A stretch of DNA of 22,590 bases from a virus. Taxonomy: Duplodnaviria > Heunggongvirae > Uroviricota > Caudoviricetes. The stretch covers positions 1 through 22,590 of the IMG/VR virus record IMGVR_UViG_2585427750_000023. One strand, 5' to 3'. A program made the position numbers and the translations under genes. Of this stretch, positions 1,009 to 9,809 are shown piece after piece; within the stretch, counting starts at the first letter, position 1; each line of letters begins with the position of its first letter. The notes beneath the pieces were generated by a model. It saw only the letters and a list, made by a program, of their open reading frames with translations, did not search any database and was not told where the DNA came from.

Positions 1009-1083
1009 GTCCTCTTAGTTAAATGGATATAACGAGCCCCTCCTAAGGGCTAATTGCAGGTTCGATTCCTGCAGGGGACACCA
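1009..1083 (+). tRNA. argW: tRNA-Arg (anticodon CCU), integration target of the prophage
   Basis: 75-nt cloverleaf read by hand: acceptor stem GTCCTCT/AGGGGAC (one G-U), anticodon stem AGCCC/GGGCT with loop CTCCTAA (anticodon CCT), T-arm GCAGG-TTCGATT-CCTGC, discriminator A plus encoded CCA; candidate -10 TATACT at 992..997. Confidence 0.93.
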
Positions 1084-1244
1084 TTTATCAGTTCGCTCCC
1101 ATCCGTACCAGTCCGCAAAATCCCCTGAATATCAAGCCTTCCGTAGATTCACAGTTCGTAATGGTTCGCGTCAGATCGTTGACAGCCGCACTCCATGACG
1201 GGTAAAAAGTGGATAAAATAATTTTACCCACCGGATTTTTACCC

Positions 1245-2402
1245 ATGCTCACCGTTAAGCAGATTGAAGCAGCAAAGCCGAAAGAAAAACCATACCGCCT
1301 ACTCGATGGTAATGGCCTGTACCTTTATGTCCCTGTGTCAGGGAAAAAGGTATGGCAGCTTCGCTACAAGATTGACGGTAAGGAGAAAATCCTGACCGTA
1401 GGAAAATATCCGCTAATGACTTTGCAGGAGGCAAGGGATAAAGCATGGACTGCGAGGAAAGACATCTCGGTTGGCATCGATCCGGTAAAAGCGAAAAAGG
1501 CTTCGTCTAACAACAATTCCTTTAGTGCGATTTACAAGGAATGGTACGAGCACAAGAAGCAAGTCTGGTCAGTAGGCTATGCAACTGAACTTGCAAAAAT
1601 GTTTGATGACGACATTTTACCTATCATCGGCGGCCTTGAAATTCAGGATATTGAGCCGATGCAACTGCTGGAAGTAATCCGCAGATTTGAAGATCGCGGC
1701 GCAATGGAGCGAGCCAACAAAGCACGCAGAAGATGCGGCGAGGTTTTCCGTTACGCTATTGTCACTGGTAGGGCTAAATATAACCCGGCACCTGACCTTG
1801 CAGACGCCATGAAAGGATACCGCAAGAAGAACTTCCCGTTTCTTCCTGCAGACCAGATCCCGGCATTCAACAAAGCACTGGCAACATTTTCAGGAAGCAT
1901 CGTATCGCTCATTGCGACCAAAGTTTTACGCTACACAGCCCTAAGAACGAAAGAGCTTCGTTCCATGCAATGGAAGAACGTCGATTTTGAAAACAGGATT
2001 ATCACTATCGACGCCAGTGTGATGAAGGGACGCAAAATTCATGTGGTTCCTATGTCAGACCAGGTGGTTGAACTTCTCACTACGCTAAGCTCAATCACCA
2101 AACCAGTATCAGAGTTTGTTTTTGCCGGACGCAACGATAAGAAGAAGCCAATCTGCGAGAACGCGGTGCTACTTGTGATTAAACAAATCGGCTATGAGGG
2201 TCTGGAAAGCGGTCACGGATTCAGGCATGAATTCAGCACGATTATGAACGAGCACGAATGGCCTGCTGACGCTATTGAAGTGCAACTTGCACATGCCAAC
2301 GGCGGATCTGTGCGCGGGATTTACAACCATGCTCAGTATCTAGATAAGCGCAGAGAAATGATGCAGTGGTGGGCGGAATGGCTTGATGGGAAGGTGGAGT
2401 GA
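1245..2402 (+). CDS. intS: Prophage tyrosine integrase (P4/CPS-53 IntS-like, N-terminal DUF4102-type arm-binding domain)
   Basis: 385-aa ORF from ATG 1245 (MLTVKQIEAAKPKEKPYRLLDG...), recognised as IntS-type integrase; directly downstream of argW in the same orientation. The ORF-track start at 1209 is a GTG extension and is not preferred. Confidence 0.88.
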   Translation: MLTVKQIEAAKPKEKPYRLLDGNGLYLYVPVSGKKVWQLRYKIDGKEKILTVGKYPLMTLQEARDKAWTARKDISVGIDPVKAKKASSNNNSFSAIYKEWYEHKKQVWSVGYATELAKMFDDDILPIIGGLEIQDIEPMQLLEVIRRFEDRGAMERANKARRRCGEVFRYAIVTGRAKYNPAPDLADAMKGYRKKNFPFLPADQIPAFNKALATFSGSIVSLIATKVLRYTALRTKELRSMQWKNVDFENRIITIDASVMKGRKIHVVPMSDQVVELLTTLSSITKPVSEFVFAGRNDKKKPICENAVLLVIKQIGYEGLESGHGFRHEFSTIMNEHEWPADAIEVQLAHANGGSVRGIYNHAQYLDKRREMMQWWAEWLDGKVE

Positions 2403-2581
2403 TCCACCTTAACTACTATCTAAGAGCACAAAGCCTTGCAATCCAGTGCAAAGCTTTGTGTGTCTCAGTTTTGTCTGCCATCACATGGAGATAATTAACC
2501 TATAACGCACATAGATGGTTGATGTTAATAAAAGCGCTGATCATCTCCTTAAGAGTATTTTAAGAGCATTTGAGTTATTAG

Positions 2582-2609
2582 CATGGAGGCGTATTGCCTC
2601 CATGTTTTT
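2582..2609 (+). terminator. Intrinsic terminator in the int-tailspike spacer (stem CATGGAGGC / GCCTCCATG, loop GTATT, then TTTTT on + strand)
   Basis: Perfect 9-bp inverted repeat 2582..2590 / 2596..2604 followed by T5 at 2605..2609; A-run on the other side, so it may act weakly in the tailspike direction too. Confidence 0.6.
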
Positions 2610-2610
2610 A

Positions 2611-4848
2611 CTACCATGTCGCATCTATGTAGAACGTTGGAGATGTAGTGGTGGACCCTTCAATCGATATTTGTCCTGTTGAAGCATTAATGGTGGCCAT
2701 TGCCATGCCAAATGAAACGCCATCAGCAGTGAACGGTACAGGGACATTTTTGGTTACTTTTGGTCTGCACCACCTCGGAAGCGTTAGAACAGTATTGCCA
2801 TTCGCAAATGAAGTGGCTGCCAGTTCAATATTAATTGAATTGGCAGTTAAACTTGACGGTGCCTGTACTGTTACGTTTGTTCCAGCCCACCATTGAACAG
2901 CTGCTCTTGGCGTGTAATCAACACGCGACCACCAGTCGATAATGGCAGAGCAGATAATTTCCGCATACAGACGATACCCTAACTGGCTTTGGTGAATGTC
3001 ATCACGCAGAAGTGGGTCGTATTGCGTGTTGAAATACTCTGGATATGGGGCCGGGAGCTGGTGAGTTGTTGTTACACAAATGACGTTATTGCCATATTTC
3101 ATCATCTGGCGTTTACCAGCTTCTCGCAACTCTGCGACACCGTCGTAGTTAGAAGATGGCTGGCCAGCCCCTCCAATAAATGACTGGCTATACCACATCC
3201 ACGGCTCAACCCAAACAGGGATACGACCAAGGCCATTGCAATATAAGACAAACTCATCTATCAATGACGCCATATAATCGCCGTTTTGGTTTGCCTGCCC
3301 TTCGTTAGTTCCGGCAACCATAATAACGATGTAAGCATCACCCGGCCCCTGAGCCTTCAGGAGATCTAACTGTTGCCTCATTGTCTGTCCGGCAACTGCC
3401 TTGTTTACAATGCTATGTGAACGGTGGCCGTTCGCTCCATCCATTAATTGCGGAATGTACGAGCTGAACGCGGAAATGAAATCCTCAGCTGTACTATCAC
3501 CGTGGATAAGGATATTAAGTGGAGGCTTACCGTGCACGCCATTATCAGAGGTGTAGCTGCATAATCCAGTTACACGCGCAGCACCTCCAGATGCCGTGGT
3601 CAGTGCAACAAACCCAACTTCGTATACATCCCCTACATCAGCAGTATCAAAGGGCAAACGTATCCCAACGCCATTCATCGTTATCTGCGCCCAGTTTTTA
3701 CCTTGCAGTGATACGCCAACGGTTGCTTTGCCCGGGGCGTACGACAGTAAACCTCCTGGCAGCGGGAATGGAGTTCCTTCTGCTACTGGACCACCAATTG
3801 GTTTCTGTCTATAAGACCACTGTGTAGCACCTGGTGCCCCATAGAACATCATCCAACCACCAGAGCATCGCAGAACAATCCCAACTTCTGAGGCGGCCTG
3901 AGATTCCATACGAATATGTGCAGAAATATGCTCTCCAATATCTATTGGTGCGAACAGGCCTGTTGTACGGTCAGTAGTTAAGGGGAAGATAGCTGCGCTA
4001 TCTGAGGATATGGTGACTTCACCTTCATAGAAGAACGTGTCACCATTTATGGAATAAACTTTACAATCTGACCATTCCACTCGCTTCATGCGAATAGGGT
4101 TTCGGTTGAGGATGGCCTGCTTAGCCAGATAATCCACTTCTCCACCGGTTGCTTTAAAGTTCAGGTGCGTAAATTCAAACGTACCCTCCCCCTCGTACTG
4201 CAACGATTTAAACAGTGAGTACAGATCACTGTCGAATCTCAGGGTGACATTTTTATCAATGATTACTTTACTGTTCGCAAGGAAAGAAGCGTTAGCAGCT
4301 GTAGACGGTACGGTGTACACCATCTGATTTTTTGAATGATTAGAGAAGTAAACATACCCGTAGGTCGCAACACTATCGCGCCACGCCTGGACTACGTTAG
4401 AATTATCATAACTTGGAATTTTTGTGATCGACTGCAAAACAAGATCTTCCTGTGAGATAGCTCCGTTTACCAGATTAACACCTCCTTGAGATGCAAGATC
4501 TTGCCTGAGTTGGTCAGGGTCATACTTCAGCACATTCGAAAAATAGAACTGCTGCGCACCATACGCATCATAAACAGCCATAGAATGGCCTTGCACGGTT
4601 ACGAATTTGGCAATCTGTCCGTTATATACCGGATATCCAGCAGCGTTAATGATGATTGGTTGCGAAACAGGAACGTGAGAACCATCTTCGTTCTCTACAT
4701 AAACCTGAATCTGGTTTTCAGTATTTACCGGGTCAGTGTCAATTTTACCGATATAAATTTTGCCATTGGCTACGGCTTTAAAAGAACGCGCCATAGTGAA
4801 GAGTTGCGAAGGCATCGATACGATCACATTGGCTGTAATGTCTGTCAT
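2611..4848 (-). CDS. Tailspike protein: P22-family head-binding N-terminal domain fused to a divergent receptor-binding region containing an SGNH/GDSL-hydrolase (esterase) motif set
   Basis: 745 aa; N-terminus [11 protein letters not shown]...[20 protein letters not shown]...[13 protein letters not shown] matches the conserved P22 gp9 head-binding domain; further downstream [11 protein letters not shown] (aa 447-455), GTNE (513-516) and DDIH (616-619) match SGNH blocks I, III and V; RBS GGAG 8 nt upstream of ATG. Confidence 0.85.
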
Positions 4849-6586: not shown

Positions 6587-6865
6587 ATGACAGATACCAA
6601 AGTGAACTTCAGAGAAACCATCTTCAAGGACTCAAGTGATGCTGTAAATGAGTATGCTGATGGATTTGCTTACTCGTCTTTTGGGGATGTCGGAGCAAGA
6701 TTTGGTTCAATAGCATTTTTTAAGCATGTTTCAGACTGGGTTAATAATGAGGAGATTCAGCCAGTTAGATACCAAATTGCCAACATTCGCATGAGTGAAA
6801 ATCAACTTCTTGAACTGGCTAAGTATATAGTTTCTCAACACGAAGAATCAAAAAAATTAAGCTGA
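6587..6865 (+). CDS. Hypothetical protein, first gene downstream of mnt (start 2 nt after mnt stop)
   Basis: 92-aa ORF with AAGGA upstream inside the mnt 3' end; no recognisable motif. Confidence 0.55.
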   Translation: MTDTKVNFRETIFKDSSDAVNEYADGFAYSSFGDVGARFGSIAFFKHVSDWVNNEEIQPVRYQIANIRMSENQLLELAKYIVSQHEESKKLS

Positions 6866-6872
6866 CAGAGCC

Positions 6873-7433
6873 ATGATTTCTTTCCCTGCCGTAAATGCTG
6901 ATCATGCAGCGGAGAAAAAGAGAACTCTTGGTCGTATGGGGTCGACAGGTGGCATAGGAGAAAAGTCCAATGCTTCGCCTCCAGTTACCAAGAATGATAT
7001 AACCAAAAACAATAATATCGCTTATCTTGGAAAACAATACACTGAGGAGCATGCTATGGGCAGCCCATCAAGAGAAGAGATTGACGCGAAGCTTGGTCAA
7101 AACAAAGCAGAAATTGAGTTAATATCTGCTAACATGCGCGCTGAAATTTCAGCTTTCAGAGAATTCCAATCTAAGCAATTTACAGCTATGAATCAGTCCC
7201 TTAATGAAATTAAGGGACAGATATTCGCTAGCAATGGCGAAGTTGCAGGGCTCAAAGGTCAAATTGATGGCATTAAAACATCCATGACCGCGACCCAATG
7301 GCTCGTTGGTGCGGTTCTCGCTATGCTTGCGGTAATCATAACGCTTCCGCAGATTCAATCTTACTTCAAGGTTTCTGAGCCGACTGCGAAGGAAGCCGCT
7401 AGTGAAACCCATGATACCAAAATAAAGCAGTGA
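6873..7433 (+). CDS. Hypothetical coiled-coil protein with a single C-terminal transmembrane anchor; alternative start at 7056 (125 aa) with SD GAGGAG
   Basis: Heptad-like region EIDAKLGQNKAEIELISANMRAEISAFREFQ..., then hydrophobic helix WLVGAVLAMLAVIITLPQI; the 6873 start has a weak RBS, the internal ATG at 7056 has GAGGAG 6 nt upstream. Confidence 0.5.
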   Translation: MISFPAVNADHAAEKKRTLGRMGSTGGIGEKSNASPPVTKNDITKNNNIAYLGKQYTEEHAMGSPSREEIDAKLGQNKAEIELISANMRAEISAFREFQSKQFTAMNQSLNEIKGQIFASNGEVAGLKGQIDGIKTSMTATQWLVGAVLAMLAVIITLPQIQSYFKVSEPTAKEAASETHDTKIKQ

Positions 7434-7461: not shown

Positions 7462-7689
7462 ATGAAGCAATGGCTCATCATAATTGCTGTTTTTTTGCTC
7501 ATTTACACTGTTTTCCCAACATTAAAAGCACCAATGCAAATAATTTCACTAGCAATAATTGCGATTGGTGCTTTCATTGCTGTAGCCGTACTTGTGTTTA
7601 AGGTTTTAAAGTTTTTAGTTTGGCTATCAAAAGATGATGGATGCAAAGTTCATCAAGAAAAAGAAGGCAAAATAACCAAAGTTGACTAA
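7462..7689 (+). CDS. Hypothetical small membrane protein (two predicted TM helices)
   Basis: 75-aa ORF with strong RBS GGGAGG 6 nt upstream; two hydrophobic segments (about aa 5-22 and 26-52); stop overlaps the convergent gp16 stop. Confidence 0.6.
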   Translation: MKQWLIIIAVFLLIYTVFPTLKAPMQIISLAIIAIGAFIAVAVLVFKVLKFLVWLSKDDGCKVHQEKEGKITKVD

Positions 7690-9809
7690 CTGTCACTAGC
7701 GAGCCATGTAATAATCCCCGTGCGGGCAATGGTTTTTGCTTCATCTGTTGATAAGGTTTTCTCCCATCTCTTAAATGCCCCAGATTGCATCAGTTTCCTT
7801 TCTATTACGCGTCTCACTTCTGCTCTGTCTACTGGTGCGTTTTGCAGGCGAAATAGCATTGATTTAAACTCAGGAGAAGACAGTAGAGCATCAGCAGCCT
7901 TTATCCTGCTTGTTTTCCCTGACATCAATGCGGACGTTATCACCCCTGTTGCGCCTACACCAGGAAGACCAGATAAGCTTGTAATACCTTCCGCCGCAGC
8001 AGCTTTTGAGGCTATTCCATAAATTTTTGCGAGACTACCCTTTTCTTTCAGAAAGTTATTAACTTGCTGATCCACAAGACTACTAGCATACTGCTTACCA
8101 GTATTGAGTCTATTCATAGCCTTAGCTGCTTGATAAATCGTATCAAGGCGCTTTGATGCATCTGTGCCAATAGCATCACGGAGAGCCTTCATATTGGCCC
8201 CATTGCGTGACATTCCGTTATACCATTTTACAAATCCATCAACTCCTAATTGCTGACCAGGTGATTTGGCATAGCTGGTAAATGCTTTATTCATTGAGGT
8301 GAGCGCAACTTCCTGCCGCATATCCTTTGGAATCGACTTCATTAATTGCCTAAAGTCGCCACCGTTTCCTTTTGCCATATTAACAACAGCACTTTCAACT
8401 TTTGGAATTGCTGATTGCTGAAGTTTTCTACCCAAGACGGTTACAGCATCATCTTCAATGGATTTTCGTTTTTTTACCAACTCCTTACCAAGCGTCCATA
8501 ATTCCCCTGCGCCATATTTTTCTGCGACAGCCTGTTGGTCATCTGTTATGGCTGCATATAACTTTTTAAGAACACCTGTTTCTTCATCCTTGAATGGACC
8601 AGAGCCTTTGCCAATAGCTTGTCCAACCTGCTTTCTAGCGAGATCTAAACGCCCATACGTTGGCAAGGTGTTTGGATCAAGTCGGTTCAATGTCCGCTTC
8701 ATTATTGGAGATAATTCATCAATTCCACCTATGTCATCAGCAAAATCCTCTAAAAAATTCAATGTATTAGTTGCCTCAATCCGGTCTCTTACAGGAACCT
8801 TTTCGGCAATTTTGTTGTAGATGTTATCTGACTGATTTTGTAATGATGAAATGGTTTTATCAAAATTATCTGCAAGCCTGTCAGAAACCAGTTGCTTATC
8901 AAGGCTTCCCCCAAATGAAGTTATCATTTCATCAGCTTTTCTTCCTAATTCAGTAATAAAACGCTTATGCGCCTCACTAATCTCCGTTCCAGGAAGACTT
9001 GCCACTGCATTATCAAGAGCCCTGACAGCAGGATTATTAGAGATCATGCCTGGAGTGGCATAATTTTCCAGTTCTAGCTCACGAATAGCATTTATCGCGT
9101 TAAAATCAGGATTAACTTCATCGGCGAAATCTTGAATAGCACGTTGCCCACCAATAAATTTATTATCCATTGCGCCAGCAGCTTTCTTTAACGTTGCTTT
9201 AGATGATTTACTACCCATCCCTACGGATGAACGATAAATATCCCCGGCACTATTTTTAATTTTTCCTGCAATCTTCCCAAGCGCTGGACCAACAATCTCG
9301 GCTACAGGGCCAGCCACAGCACCAATAGCAGCTCCGGAAGCAACATCGCTATTTGTTCCATTGGCTACAATAGCCCCTTCTCCAGCACCAAGCCCTGCGG
9401 CGGCAGCCAGCCTTGCCGCCCCTTTCGGAACCTGAGAAATAATCCCACCACCACTAACAAATGGCGCTGCTTGTCCAACAAACTCACCAACATCTTGTGC
9501 GGTTGATGGTTTTGCCGCTAACTTCTGCTGTAGAGACTGAATTGCGGCTTGCTCTTCTGGTGTCATATCCTGAAACAGGCCAACACCTTTACCAACATCC
9601 ATCAATCCACTGAGAACGCCATACATAAAACGGTCGAAACCGTTAGCATTATTAACAACATTTTCCTGTCTGGAATTTTCCTCTGGTGAAACCAAAGGAG
9701 ATTGCTGCTGTTCTGGTTGGGAATCAAGCACAAAGCCATCAGGAAGTTGTGAGTTATCAGGCTGTTCATCCAGAACAAACCCCTCTGGTAAACCTACATT
9801 GGTTGCCAT
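7686..9809 (-). CDS. Ejection (injection) protein, P22 gp16-like
   Basis: 707-aa ORF at the gp16 position in P22 synteny (last gene of the 7/20/16 trio); Gly/Ala-rich segments; start overlaps gp20 stop. Confidence 0.75.
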   Translation of the reverse strand: MATNVGLPEGFVLDEQPDNSQLPDGFVLDSQPEQQQSPLVSPEENSRQENVVNNANGFDRFMYGVLSGLMDVGKGVGLFQDMTPEEQAAIQSLQQKLAAKPSTAQDVGEFVGQAAPFVSGGGIISQVPKGAARLAAAAGLGAGEGAIVANGTNSDVASGAAIGAVAGPVAEIVGPALGKIAGKIKNSAGDIYRSSVGMGSKSSKATLKKAAGAMDNKFIGGQRAIQDFADEVNPDFNAINAIRELELENYATPGMISNNPAVRALDNAVASLPGTEISEAHKRFITELGRKADEMITSFGGSLDKQLVSDRLADNFDKTISSLQNQSDNIYNKIAEKVPVRDRIEATNTLNFLEDFADDIGGIDELSPIMKRTLNRLDPNTLPTYGRLDLARKQVGQAIGKGSGPFKDEETGVLKKLYAAITDDQQAVAEKYGAGELWTLGKELVKKRKSIEDDAVTVLGRKLQQSAIPKVESAVVNMAKGNGGDFRQLMKSIPKDMRQEVALTSMNKAFTSYAKSPGQQLGVDGFVKWYNGMSRNGANMKALRDAIGTDASKRLDTIYQAAKAMNRLNTGKQYASSLVDQQVNNFLKEKGSLAKIYGIASKAAAAEGITSLSGLPGVGATGVITSALMSGKTSRIKAADALLSSPEFKSMLFRLQNAPVDRAEVRRVIERKLMQSGAFKRWEKTLSTDEAKTIARTGIITWLASDS

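Follow-up and report, generated by a model that had tools for sequence, protein, structure and literature searches.

A P22-type tailspike with an SGNH/GDSL hydrolase cassette and a predicted specificity for the O88 O-antigen of Escherichia coli

The tailspike and its hydrolase domain

The stretch of DNA considered here (hereinafter, the window) comprises positions 1 to 22,590, that is, the full 22,590 nucleotides, of the IMG/VR virus record IMGVR_UViG_2585427750_000023 (Caudoviricetes), and the gene under study encodes a tailspike of 745 amino acids (aa). We argue, with an estimated probability of about 0.75, that this protein is an O88-specific spike in which an adaptor of the P22 type is joined to an SGNH esterase cassette, and which would remove O-acetyl groups from the receptor polysaccharide without cutting its chain. 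Central to this argument is the finding that aa 438-645 are an SGNH/GDSL hydrolase domain, with a predicted Ser452-His619-Asp616 triad and a predicted oxyanion hole formed by Gly487 and Asn515. The layout of the gene is given below, with the supporting evidence in parentheses (ORF, open reading frame; AF2, AlphaFold2; pLDDT, predicted local distance difference test score).

2611..4848, minus strand: tailspike gene, 745 aa plus stop codon (ORF list, translation, full-length match to phrog_17606)
4510..4848, minus strand: P22-type head-binding (virion attachment) domain, aa 1-113 (PF09008, E=6e-66; structures; DNA identity)
4501..4521, minus strand: mosaic junction, aa 110-116, around the YDPDQ motif (breakpoints of DNA and protein identity)
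4432..4509, minus strand: linker or neck, aa 114-139, short helices (AF2 pLDDT 35-59, low confidence in the monomer model)
4099..4431, minus strand: alpha/beta subdomain, aa 140-250 (AF2 pLDDT ~90; D198 invariant)
3538..4098, minus strand: ConA/galectin-like beta-sandwich, aa 251-437, predicted carbohydrate-binding partner of the esterase
2914..3537, minus strand: SGNH/GDSL hydrolase (predicted esterase) domain, aa 438-645
3493..3501, minus strand: block I, G450-D451-S452, with Ser452 as the predicted nucleophile (invariant; aligned to the GDS of TesA, Ser10)
3388..3390, minus strand: block II, Gly487, predicted oxyanion hole (invariant; aligned to the block II glycine of TesA)
3304..3312, minus strand: block III, G513-T514-N515, with Asn515 in the predicted oxyanion hole (invariant; aligned to the GGND of TesA)
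2992..3003, minus strand: block V, D616-D-I-H619, predicted Asp and His of the triad (D616 and H619 invariant; sub-threshold alignment to the DGIH of TesA)
2614..2913, minus strand: C-terminal beta-sandwich, aa 646-745 (AF2 pLDDT ~95, seven strands; in all full-length homologs)

The protein matches phrog_17606 over its full length, an entry that PHROGs lists as being of unknown function; homologs with 95-99% identity carry the annotation "phage tailspike protein", and several family members have already been named "SGNH/GDSL hydrolase family protein" by the NCBI pipeline. The original prediction, made from the sequence of the window, had recognized SGNH blocks I, III and V in this protein, with Ser452, Asn515, Asp616 and His619 as candidate catalytic residues, and all of these are located where it had placed them. 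The block I motif, [11 protein letters not shown], is present as well and occupies aa 446-456 (DNA 3481-3513), so that the range of 3481-3501 initially given for it has to be corrected, as it covers only GDSTAED, aa 450-456. GTNE corresponds to aa 513-516 (3301-3312) and DDIH to aa 616-619 (2992-3003), with a spacing of 63 residues from Ser452 to Asn515 and of 104 residues from Asn515 to His619. Since an ordered GDS...GxN...DxxH trio at such spacing arises in 294 of 100,000 shuffles of the protein, the motif alone is suggestive but inconclusive.

The assignment is settled by independent evidence from the conservation of these residues, the alignment to a known SGNH enzyme and the fold of the domain. 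A homolog search yielded 85 proteins, 42 of which, with identities of 24-98%, were aligned to assess conservation; GDS450-452, G487, GTN513-515, D616 and H619 are invariant throughout this alignment, and the SGNH region shows by far the densest conservation in the protein. The Pfam model PF13472 matches 34 of the 42 homologs at E<=0.01 (best E=1e-13), and its gathering cut-off is exceeded in five of 10 scanned remote relatives. A profile of the domain alone matches E. coli thioesterase I (TesA), the archetypal SGNH enzyme, at E=3.6e-6, with the profile of the whole family matching TesA weakly; GDS, the block II glycine (ISGDT) and GxN(D) are in register in this alignment, and DxxH falls within a weaker, sub-threshold second segment. 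A Foldseek comparison, of the kind that had been proposed along with the original prediction, recovered SGNH hydrolases, including carbohydrate acetyl-esterases of the CE2 and CE3 families and the esterase spike of phage G7C, and the domain has the three-layer alpha/beta/alpha fold of this group. The computational checks suggested for the original prediction all turned out in its favor.

Regions preceding and following the hydrolase domain

The region of aa 114-437, which the original prediction had left undescribed, consists of an alpha/beta subdomain and a ConA/galectin-like beta-sandwich, which the AF2 model of aa 121-445 alone (pLDDT 85) delimits at ~aa 140-250 and ~aa 251-437, respectively. 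No Pfam match was obtained with aa 121-445 or with aa 641-745, each searched separately, even at E<=5. The monomer model of the tailspike contains no right-handed beta-helix, and its structural neighbors are SGNH and ConA-like folds. Structural matches to the beta-sandwich include non-catalytic lectins and carbohydrate-binding modules (CBMs), namely, ECA2234, CBM66, galectins and accessory domains of GH43 enzymes, and its conservation is sparse relative to that of the SGNH domain. When the pre-SGNH half alone was searched exhaustively against 1.84 billion representative proteins, only 27 relatives were returned; in eight of the 10 remote relatives that were scanned (26-39% identity), a PF13472 domain directly follows the matched region. 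The beta-sandwich is, therefore, obligately paired with the esterase, like its counterpart in the CE2 enzymes. The simplest reading of the beta-sandwich of aa 251-437 is that of a polysaccharide-binding module.

The adaptor and the mobile cassette

The assignment of the first ~110 aa to the P22-family head-binding domain holds: besides the Pfam match, the structure of Sf6 gp14 (7sg7) matches the N-terminus at 4e-65, and the structures of the P22 and HK620 tailspikes match it too. At the DNA level, the adaptor is 87-96% identical to those of CUS-3, HK620, Sf6 and epsilon34, and this identity ends at nucleotides 329-348 of the gene. A sequence search of the PDB with the single protein matched the N-terminal domain only, the matches ending at aa 115-121, in keeping with the claim that the remainder is unrelated to the tailspikes of P22, Sf6 and HK620. 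Conversely, pairwise alignments with homologs that have other N-termini show identity that starts mostly at aa 110-114 (at aa 118-141 in a few) and continues to the last residue. Both breakpoints coincide with the usual recombination point of tailspikes, at which the junction had been placed from the outset. Because the identity reaches the last residue, the C-terminal beta-sandwich is part of the cassette; the "extra" C-terminal domain of ~105 aa that had been postulated is, thus, real as a confidently modeled beta-sandwich of ~100 aa (646-745) and an integral part of the whole rather than an add-on.

Accordingly, aa 114-745 are a single cassette that is always transferred whole. This cassette moves between at least five virion adaptors, namely, those of P22-like, epsilon15-like and T7-like phages, those of the TSP1/Gp66 type, and those of large myoviruses. 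The N-termini found fused to it are PF09008 (P22 head-binding), PF18668 (TSP1/Gp66), PF03906 (T7 tail-fibre), PF12571 (tail-collar fibre) and Calx-beta repeats; a version of 800 aa is located in an epsilon15/phiV10-like prophage beside yfgI, and one of 659 aa in a metagenomic contig of 152 kb from a Justusliebigvirus-like myovirus (L007, 6001-7980). The hosts of the cassette include E. coli, Enterobacter (91% identity), Pseudescherichia, Buttiauxella and Shewanella. At the DNA level, the intact cassette was found in no deposited phage of the phage collection searched; tblastn of the same collection detected nothing beyond distant relatives in phages of Aeromonas and Enterobacter and a relic in phage ESCO9.

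This relic is found in Escherichia phage vB_EcoM_ESCO9 (OM386654.1; L002, 3320-3680), a Justusliebigvirus grown on the rough K-12 strain DH5a, and is the product of a deletion within the cassette. It includes an ORF of 82 aa, annotated as "endo-N-acetylneuraminidase", in which an adaptor and [17 protein letters not shown] (aa 135-151 of the tailspike in the window) are present; beyond a frameshifted internal deletion, the cassette resumes with its final 58-59 aa, which are 95% identical. In the metagenomic contig, the 659-aa version, which is intact, occupies the equivalent position. Another notable carrier is GPEC1240 (L001, 8653-10890), with a 99%-identical spike in a degraded P22-like prophage, the integration site of which is the bio/ybhB (lambda att) region instead of argW; several structural genes of this decaying prophage are truncated (gp4, Rz and DUF2560 are pseudogenes), and the tailspike gene is intact. 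In the assembly of E. coli NADC1036, one and the same tail gene occurs twice, in the chromosome (NZ_CP076264.1, 2791571-2793223) and in a circular "plasmid" of 38.7 kb (NZ_CP076267.1, 2014-3666); the latter looks like prophage DNA that had been excised and circularized and that the assembly rendered as a plasmid.

Association with serogroup O88

The distribution of the cassette was assessed in a set of 5426 complete E. coli genomes, to which all genome counts refer. Megablast detected the cassette in 12 genomes, and sensitive blastn added a 13th, XJ55, in which it is joined to a different adaptor (72% identity at the DNA level and 82% at the protein level). The O-antigen cluster of one carrier, PEC301, is that of O88, and its wzx-GT-wzy-GT segment (GT, glycosyltransferase) occurs at >=99% identity in 25 genomes and in the form of variants at ~94.7% in five more. 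All 13 carriers of the cassette are among the 25 O88 genomes (hypergeometric p ~4e-30 for the 12 of 12 megablast carriers, and ~2e-25 once three near-identical isolates are collapsed); NCTC9088 is an example of an O88 genome in which the cassette is missing. The carriers were isolated from chicken, horse, pig, cattle and humans, and the cassette is found in them on at least three phage backbones integrated at argW, in the bio/att-lambda region, at yfgI and at one other site. Given this diversity of sources, backbones and integration sites, the association with O88 does not stem from one clonal event, and the distribution points to the O88 O-antigen as the predicted receptor of the tailspike. 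A conserved glycan receptor, such as the enterobacterial common antigen (ECA) or colanic acid, was considered because of the 91%-identical Enterobacter homologs and was rejected in view of the strict restriction to O88 within E. coli.

At its start, the O88 cluster has two genes for hexapeptide-repeat proteins that resemble the sugar O-acetyltransferases WbbJ, WcaF and CatB; rmlB, rmlA and rmlC are also present in it, together with manC/manB and a gene for a short-chain reductase other than RmlD. This gene content fits an O-acetylated repeat unit with a 6-deoxyhexose and mannose, and the O88 O-antigen is, judging from these genes, probably O-acetylated.

As regards the five O88-like genomes at ~94.7% (H100-H104), their wzy is annotated as hypothetical or as a generic polymerase, and none of them has the cassette; they may represent a sub-variant of O88 that is not recognized by the spike. 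The O88 cluster of PEC301 is flanked by insertion sequences (L005, 6539-7675; L004, 11165-12139): ISEc1 separates galF from the first acetyltransferase gene, and ISApl1 is situated between ugd and wzzB. Being just upstream of the acetyltransferase genes, ISEc1 could affect their expression.

Proposed mechanism and alternatives

The following scenario can be envisaged for the action of the spike. The head-binding domain would mount the spike on the virion, presumably as a trimer, because the P22 head-binding domain requires one; the linker of aa 114-139 might conceivably take part in trimerization. The cassette would bind acetylated O88 repeats, and the SGNH serine esterase would hydrolyze their O-acetyl esters, leaving the sugar backbone uncut. 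The deacetylated product would then be bound with lower affinity, so that the spike would be released and could bind again at a deeper position. By going through this cycle over and over, a putative ratchet, the virion would be carried down through the O-antigen layer to the outer membrane, the chains remaining unshortened, and deacetylation might also permit the virion to detach from debris. A mechanism of this type has been described for gp63.1 of phage G7C and for gp55 of phage PP99. The odds appear about even for the broader proposition that a P22-type podovirus crosses the O-antigen purely by deacetylation, using a previously undescribed cassette that combines a lectin-like domain with an SGNH domain and a beta-sandwich, has no sequence relationship to gp63.1, passes as a unit between at least five phage lineages and has a specificity for acetylated O88 and for related O-antigens of other genera.

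Several observations weigh against the interpretation of the protein as an O88-specific deacetylating spike. The tailspike itself scores only 19.7 bits with PF13472 (aa 450-627, E=1.3e-3), below the gathering cut-off of 32.9 bits, and no NCBIfam model matches it; the sub-threshold score indicates that this is a divergent SGNH member, the assignment of which is carried by the fold and motif tests. The esterase activity is a prediction, for the close homologs as well as for the tailspike. The association with O88 derives in part from related isolates, SRY149, SRY157 and SRY206 being near-identical. The O-acetylation of O88 is read from gene content and not from a structure paper, and hexapeptide transferases can N-acetylate too. 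Finally, the ConA-like fold is also that of the GH16 and PL7 enzymes, and the model is that of a monomer, such that a glycanase site between the subunits of a trimer is possible.

The last point leads to the alternative of a bifunctional spike, in which the SGNH domain would be an accessory esterase and entry would depend on a glycanase, either a GH16- or PL7-like one in the ConA-like domain or one at the subunit interface of the trimer; a 2026 preprint reports that the epsilon15 tailspike has an esterase domain that protrudes from a trimeric section shaped like a barrel. We consider this alternative unlikely. A regular-expression search of the whole protein found neither the ExDxxE or ExDxE motifs of GH16 nor the R-x-E-L-R, Q-I/V-H and YFKAG motifs of PL7, which, along with the lack of a beta-helix in the model, bears out the claim that a recognizable glycosidase module is missing. 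The one GH16-like strand, PIDIGE (aa 301-306), has proline at the position of the nucleophilic glutamate, and its D303 is variable. Furthermore, non-catalytic lectins and CBMs match the beta-sandwich equally well or better than enzymes do, and both the sparse conservation of the pre-SGNH half and its CE2-like adjacency to the SGNH domain in the remote relatives argue for a binding partner of the esterase rather than for a second enzyme.

Slightly less probable still is the possibility that the SGNH domain acts on, or binds, something other than O-antigen acetyl groups, be it another acyl group, a capsule, colanic acid or ECA, or that it is a non-catalytic binding module. SGNH enzymes are indeed broad in their substrate range, the Enterobacter cassettes could mean that the glycan is a conserved one, and the chemistry of O88 is, as noted, deduced from genes. 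However, the confinement of all carriers to the O88 genomes indicates an O88-specific receptor rather than ECA or colanic acid, the fact that neither the nucleophile nor the oxyanion-hole residues nor the Asp/His pair vary over such a wide range of identities speaks for catalysis and not for mere binding, and the O88 cluster does contain the two O-acetyltransferase-like genes. It seems highly improbable that the domain is an acetyltransferase that modifies the receptor, in the manner of the SGNH-fold transferases OatA, PatB and AlgX.

Comparison with known systems

The tailspikes of P22, Sf6, HK620 and CUS-3 have in common with the one described here the head-binding domain, the position of the gene at the end of the late operon and the junction at ~aa 110-116. 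They differ in the receptor part, which is a trimeric beta-helix endoglycosidase in P22, Sf6 and HK620 and an endosialidase in CUS-3, whereas here it is a predicted SGNH esterase that lacks a beta-helix.

In its proposed mechanism, the tailspike can be likened to gp63.1 (PDB 4QNL), the O-antigen deacetylase of the N4-like podovirus G7C, which is essential and apparently processive (PMC10743462). Membership in the gp63.1 family was nevertheless rejected, as there is no sequence similarity between the two proteins (BLASTP E>1; hhalign probability 1.9%), so that the likeness is confined to fold and function. The adaptors differ as well, gp63.1 having one of the TSP1/Gp66 type, as do the phages, G7C being a lytic member of the Schitoviridae and the phage of the window a temperate Lederbergvirus; neither the lectin-like domain preceding the SGNH domain nor the beta-sandwich following it was found by sequence in gp63.1. 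A protein that does resemble gp63.1 by HHpred is gp55 of the T7-like lytic Pectobacterium phage PP99. Experiments have demonstrated that it removes acetyl groups from the O-acetylated 6-deoxy-L-talose side chain of an O-polysaccharide with a Man-Man-Gal backbone (PMC6989608). Judging from the genes of the O88 cluster, the substrate of the tailspike may be chemically similar, an acetylated polysaccharide with a 6-deoxyhexose and mannose. When the phage collection was searched with the tailspike cassette by tblastn, gp55 was not found.

Measured activities are available for other SGNH proteins of phages. Two receptor-binding proteins of Klebsiella prophages are active esterases on p-nitrophenyl acetate (PLoS Biol 2026, PMC13123978); as in our case, these belong to temperate phages, the SGNH domain replaces a beta-helix depolymerase, and the specificity was inferred via association with serotypes. 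The Klebsiella proteins, however, are described as tail fibres that have a brush-like C-terminal SGNH architecture and target capsular K-types, in contrast to a P22-type tailspike linked to an O-antigen serogroup. The Shigella phages Moo19 and B2 are reported to possess SGNH spikes or fibres with measured esterase activity (PMC11654681).

Outside phages, the order of a beta-sandwich followed by an SGNH domain is shared with the CE2 esterases (2WAA, 2WAB) and with YxiM (2O14), which Foldseek aligns with the tailspike over 420-440 columns. These are soluble bacterial enzymes that act on plant polysaccharides and are only 10-12% identical to the tailspike, which differs from them in possessing a virion adaptor, a further alpha/beta subdomain and the C-terminal beta-sandwich.

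Novelty and significance

N4-like, T7-like and Vi phages, as well as Klebsiella prophages, are known to have spikes that deacetylate. The tailspike would be a deacetylating spike of this known functional kind, and the result is confirmatory rather than surprising; what it adds is the prediction of O88 as the receptor and the anatomy of the cassette. A literature search, the coverage of which was incomplete so that a prior description is possible, linked neither a Lederbergvirus or P22-like spike to an SGNH esterase nor any phage protein to E. coli O88.

The P22 adaptor being interchangeable, a glycosidase spike and an esterase spike could be cleanly compared by swapping them on one virion, which bears on the question of how non-cutting spikes promote infection. 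If entry by pure deacetylation is true, P22/Sf6, the best-understood tailspike system, could be used to test receptor-destroying scissors against force-generating ratchets. The strict association with O88 suggests a serogroup-specific binding and typing reagent. More generally, the tailspike would be a further case of temperate phages that modify surface glycans, as they often do, instead of depolymerizing them.

Prophage setting

The window corresponds to the left end of a Lederbergvirus prophage similar to CUS-3, phiv205-1 and Kapi1 and integrated at argW. It is 95-96% identical to phiv205-1, CUS-3 and Kapi1 across 57-62% of its length, and the genes follow each other in the order yfdC, tRNA-Arg(CCT), integrase, tailspike, ant and arc, then the ejection, tail, head and terminase genes. 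The tailspike gene thus terminates the late operon of a P22-like genome, with ant and arc upstream and int and argW downstream. The features flanking it on this side are the following.

1009..1083, plus strand: tRNA-Arg(CCT), argW, attachment site of the prophage (ARAGORN; yfdC-argW-intS synteny)
1209..2402, plus strand: prophage integrase (PF00589, PF22022, PF13356)

The gap between the integrase and the stop codon of the tailspike gene amounts to 209 bp (window 2403-2610) and has no Pfam-recognizable gene. The one ORF of at least 50 aa that begins in it (2515..2682, plus strand, 55 aa) mostly overlaps the tailspike gene on the opposite strand and was not scanned; with this exception, no O-antigen conversion gene of the gtr or oac type was found in the gap. 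This is the position at which P22, Sf6 and Sf101 have a conversion gene that modifies the O-antigen. From that locus, the prophage apparently exerts no alteration of the receptor that would protect the lysogen.

Elsewhere in the window, two ORFs are located in the immI/arc region, one at 6587-6865 (plus strand, 92 aa), which has no Pfam match, and one at 6873-7433 (plus strand, 186 aa), for which Pfam gives no more than a weak match to a coiled coil (CCDC90-like, E=2e-4). The ORF at 7686-9809 (minus strand, 707 aa), likewise without a Pfam match, occupies the position of a P22-type ejection protein.

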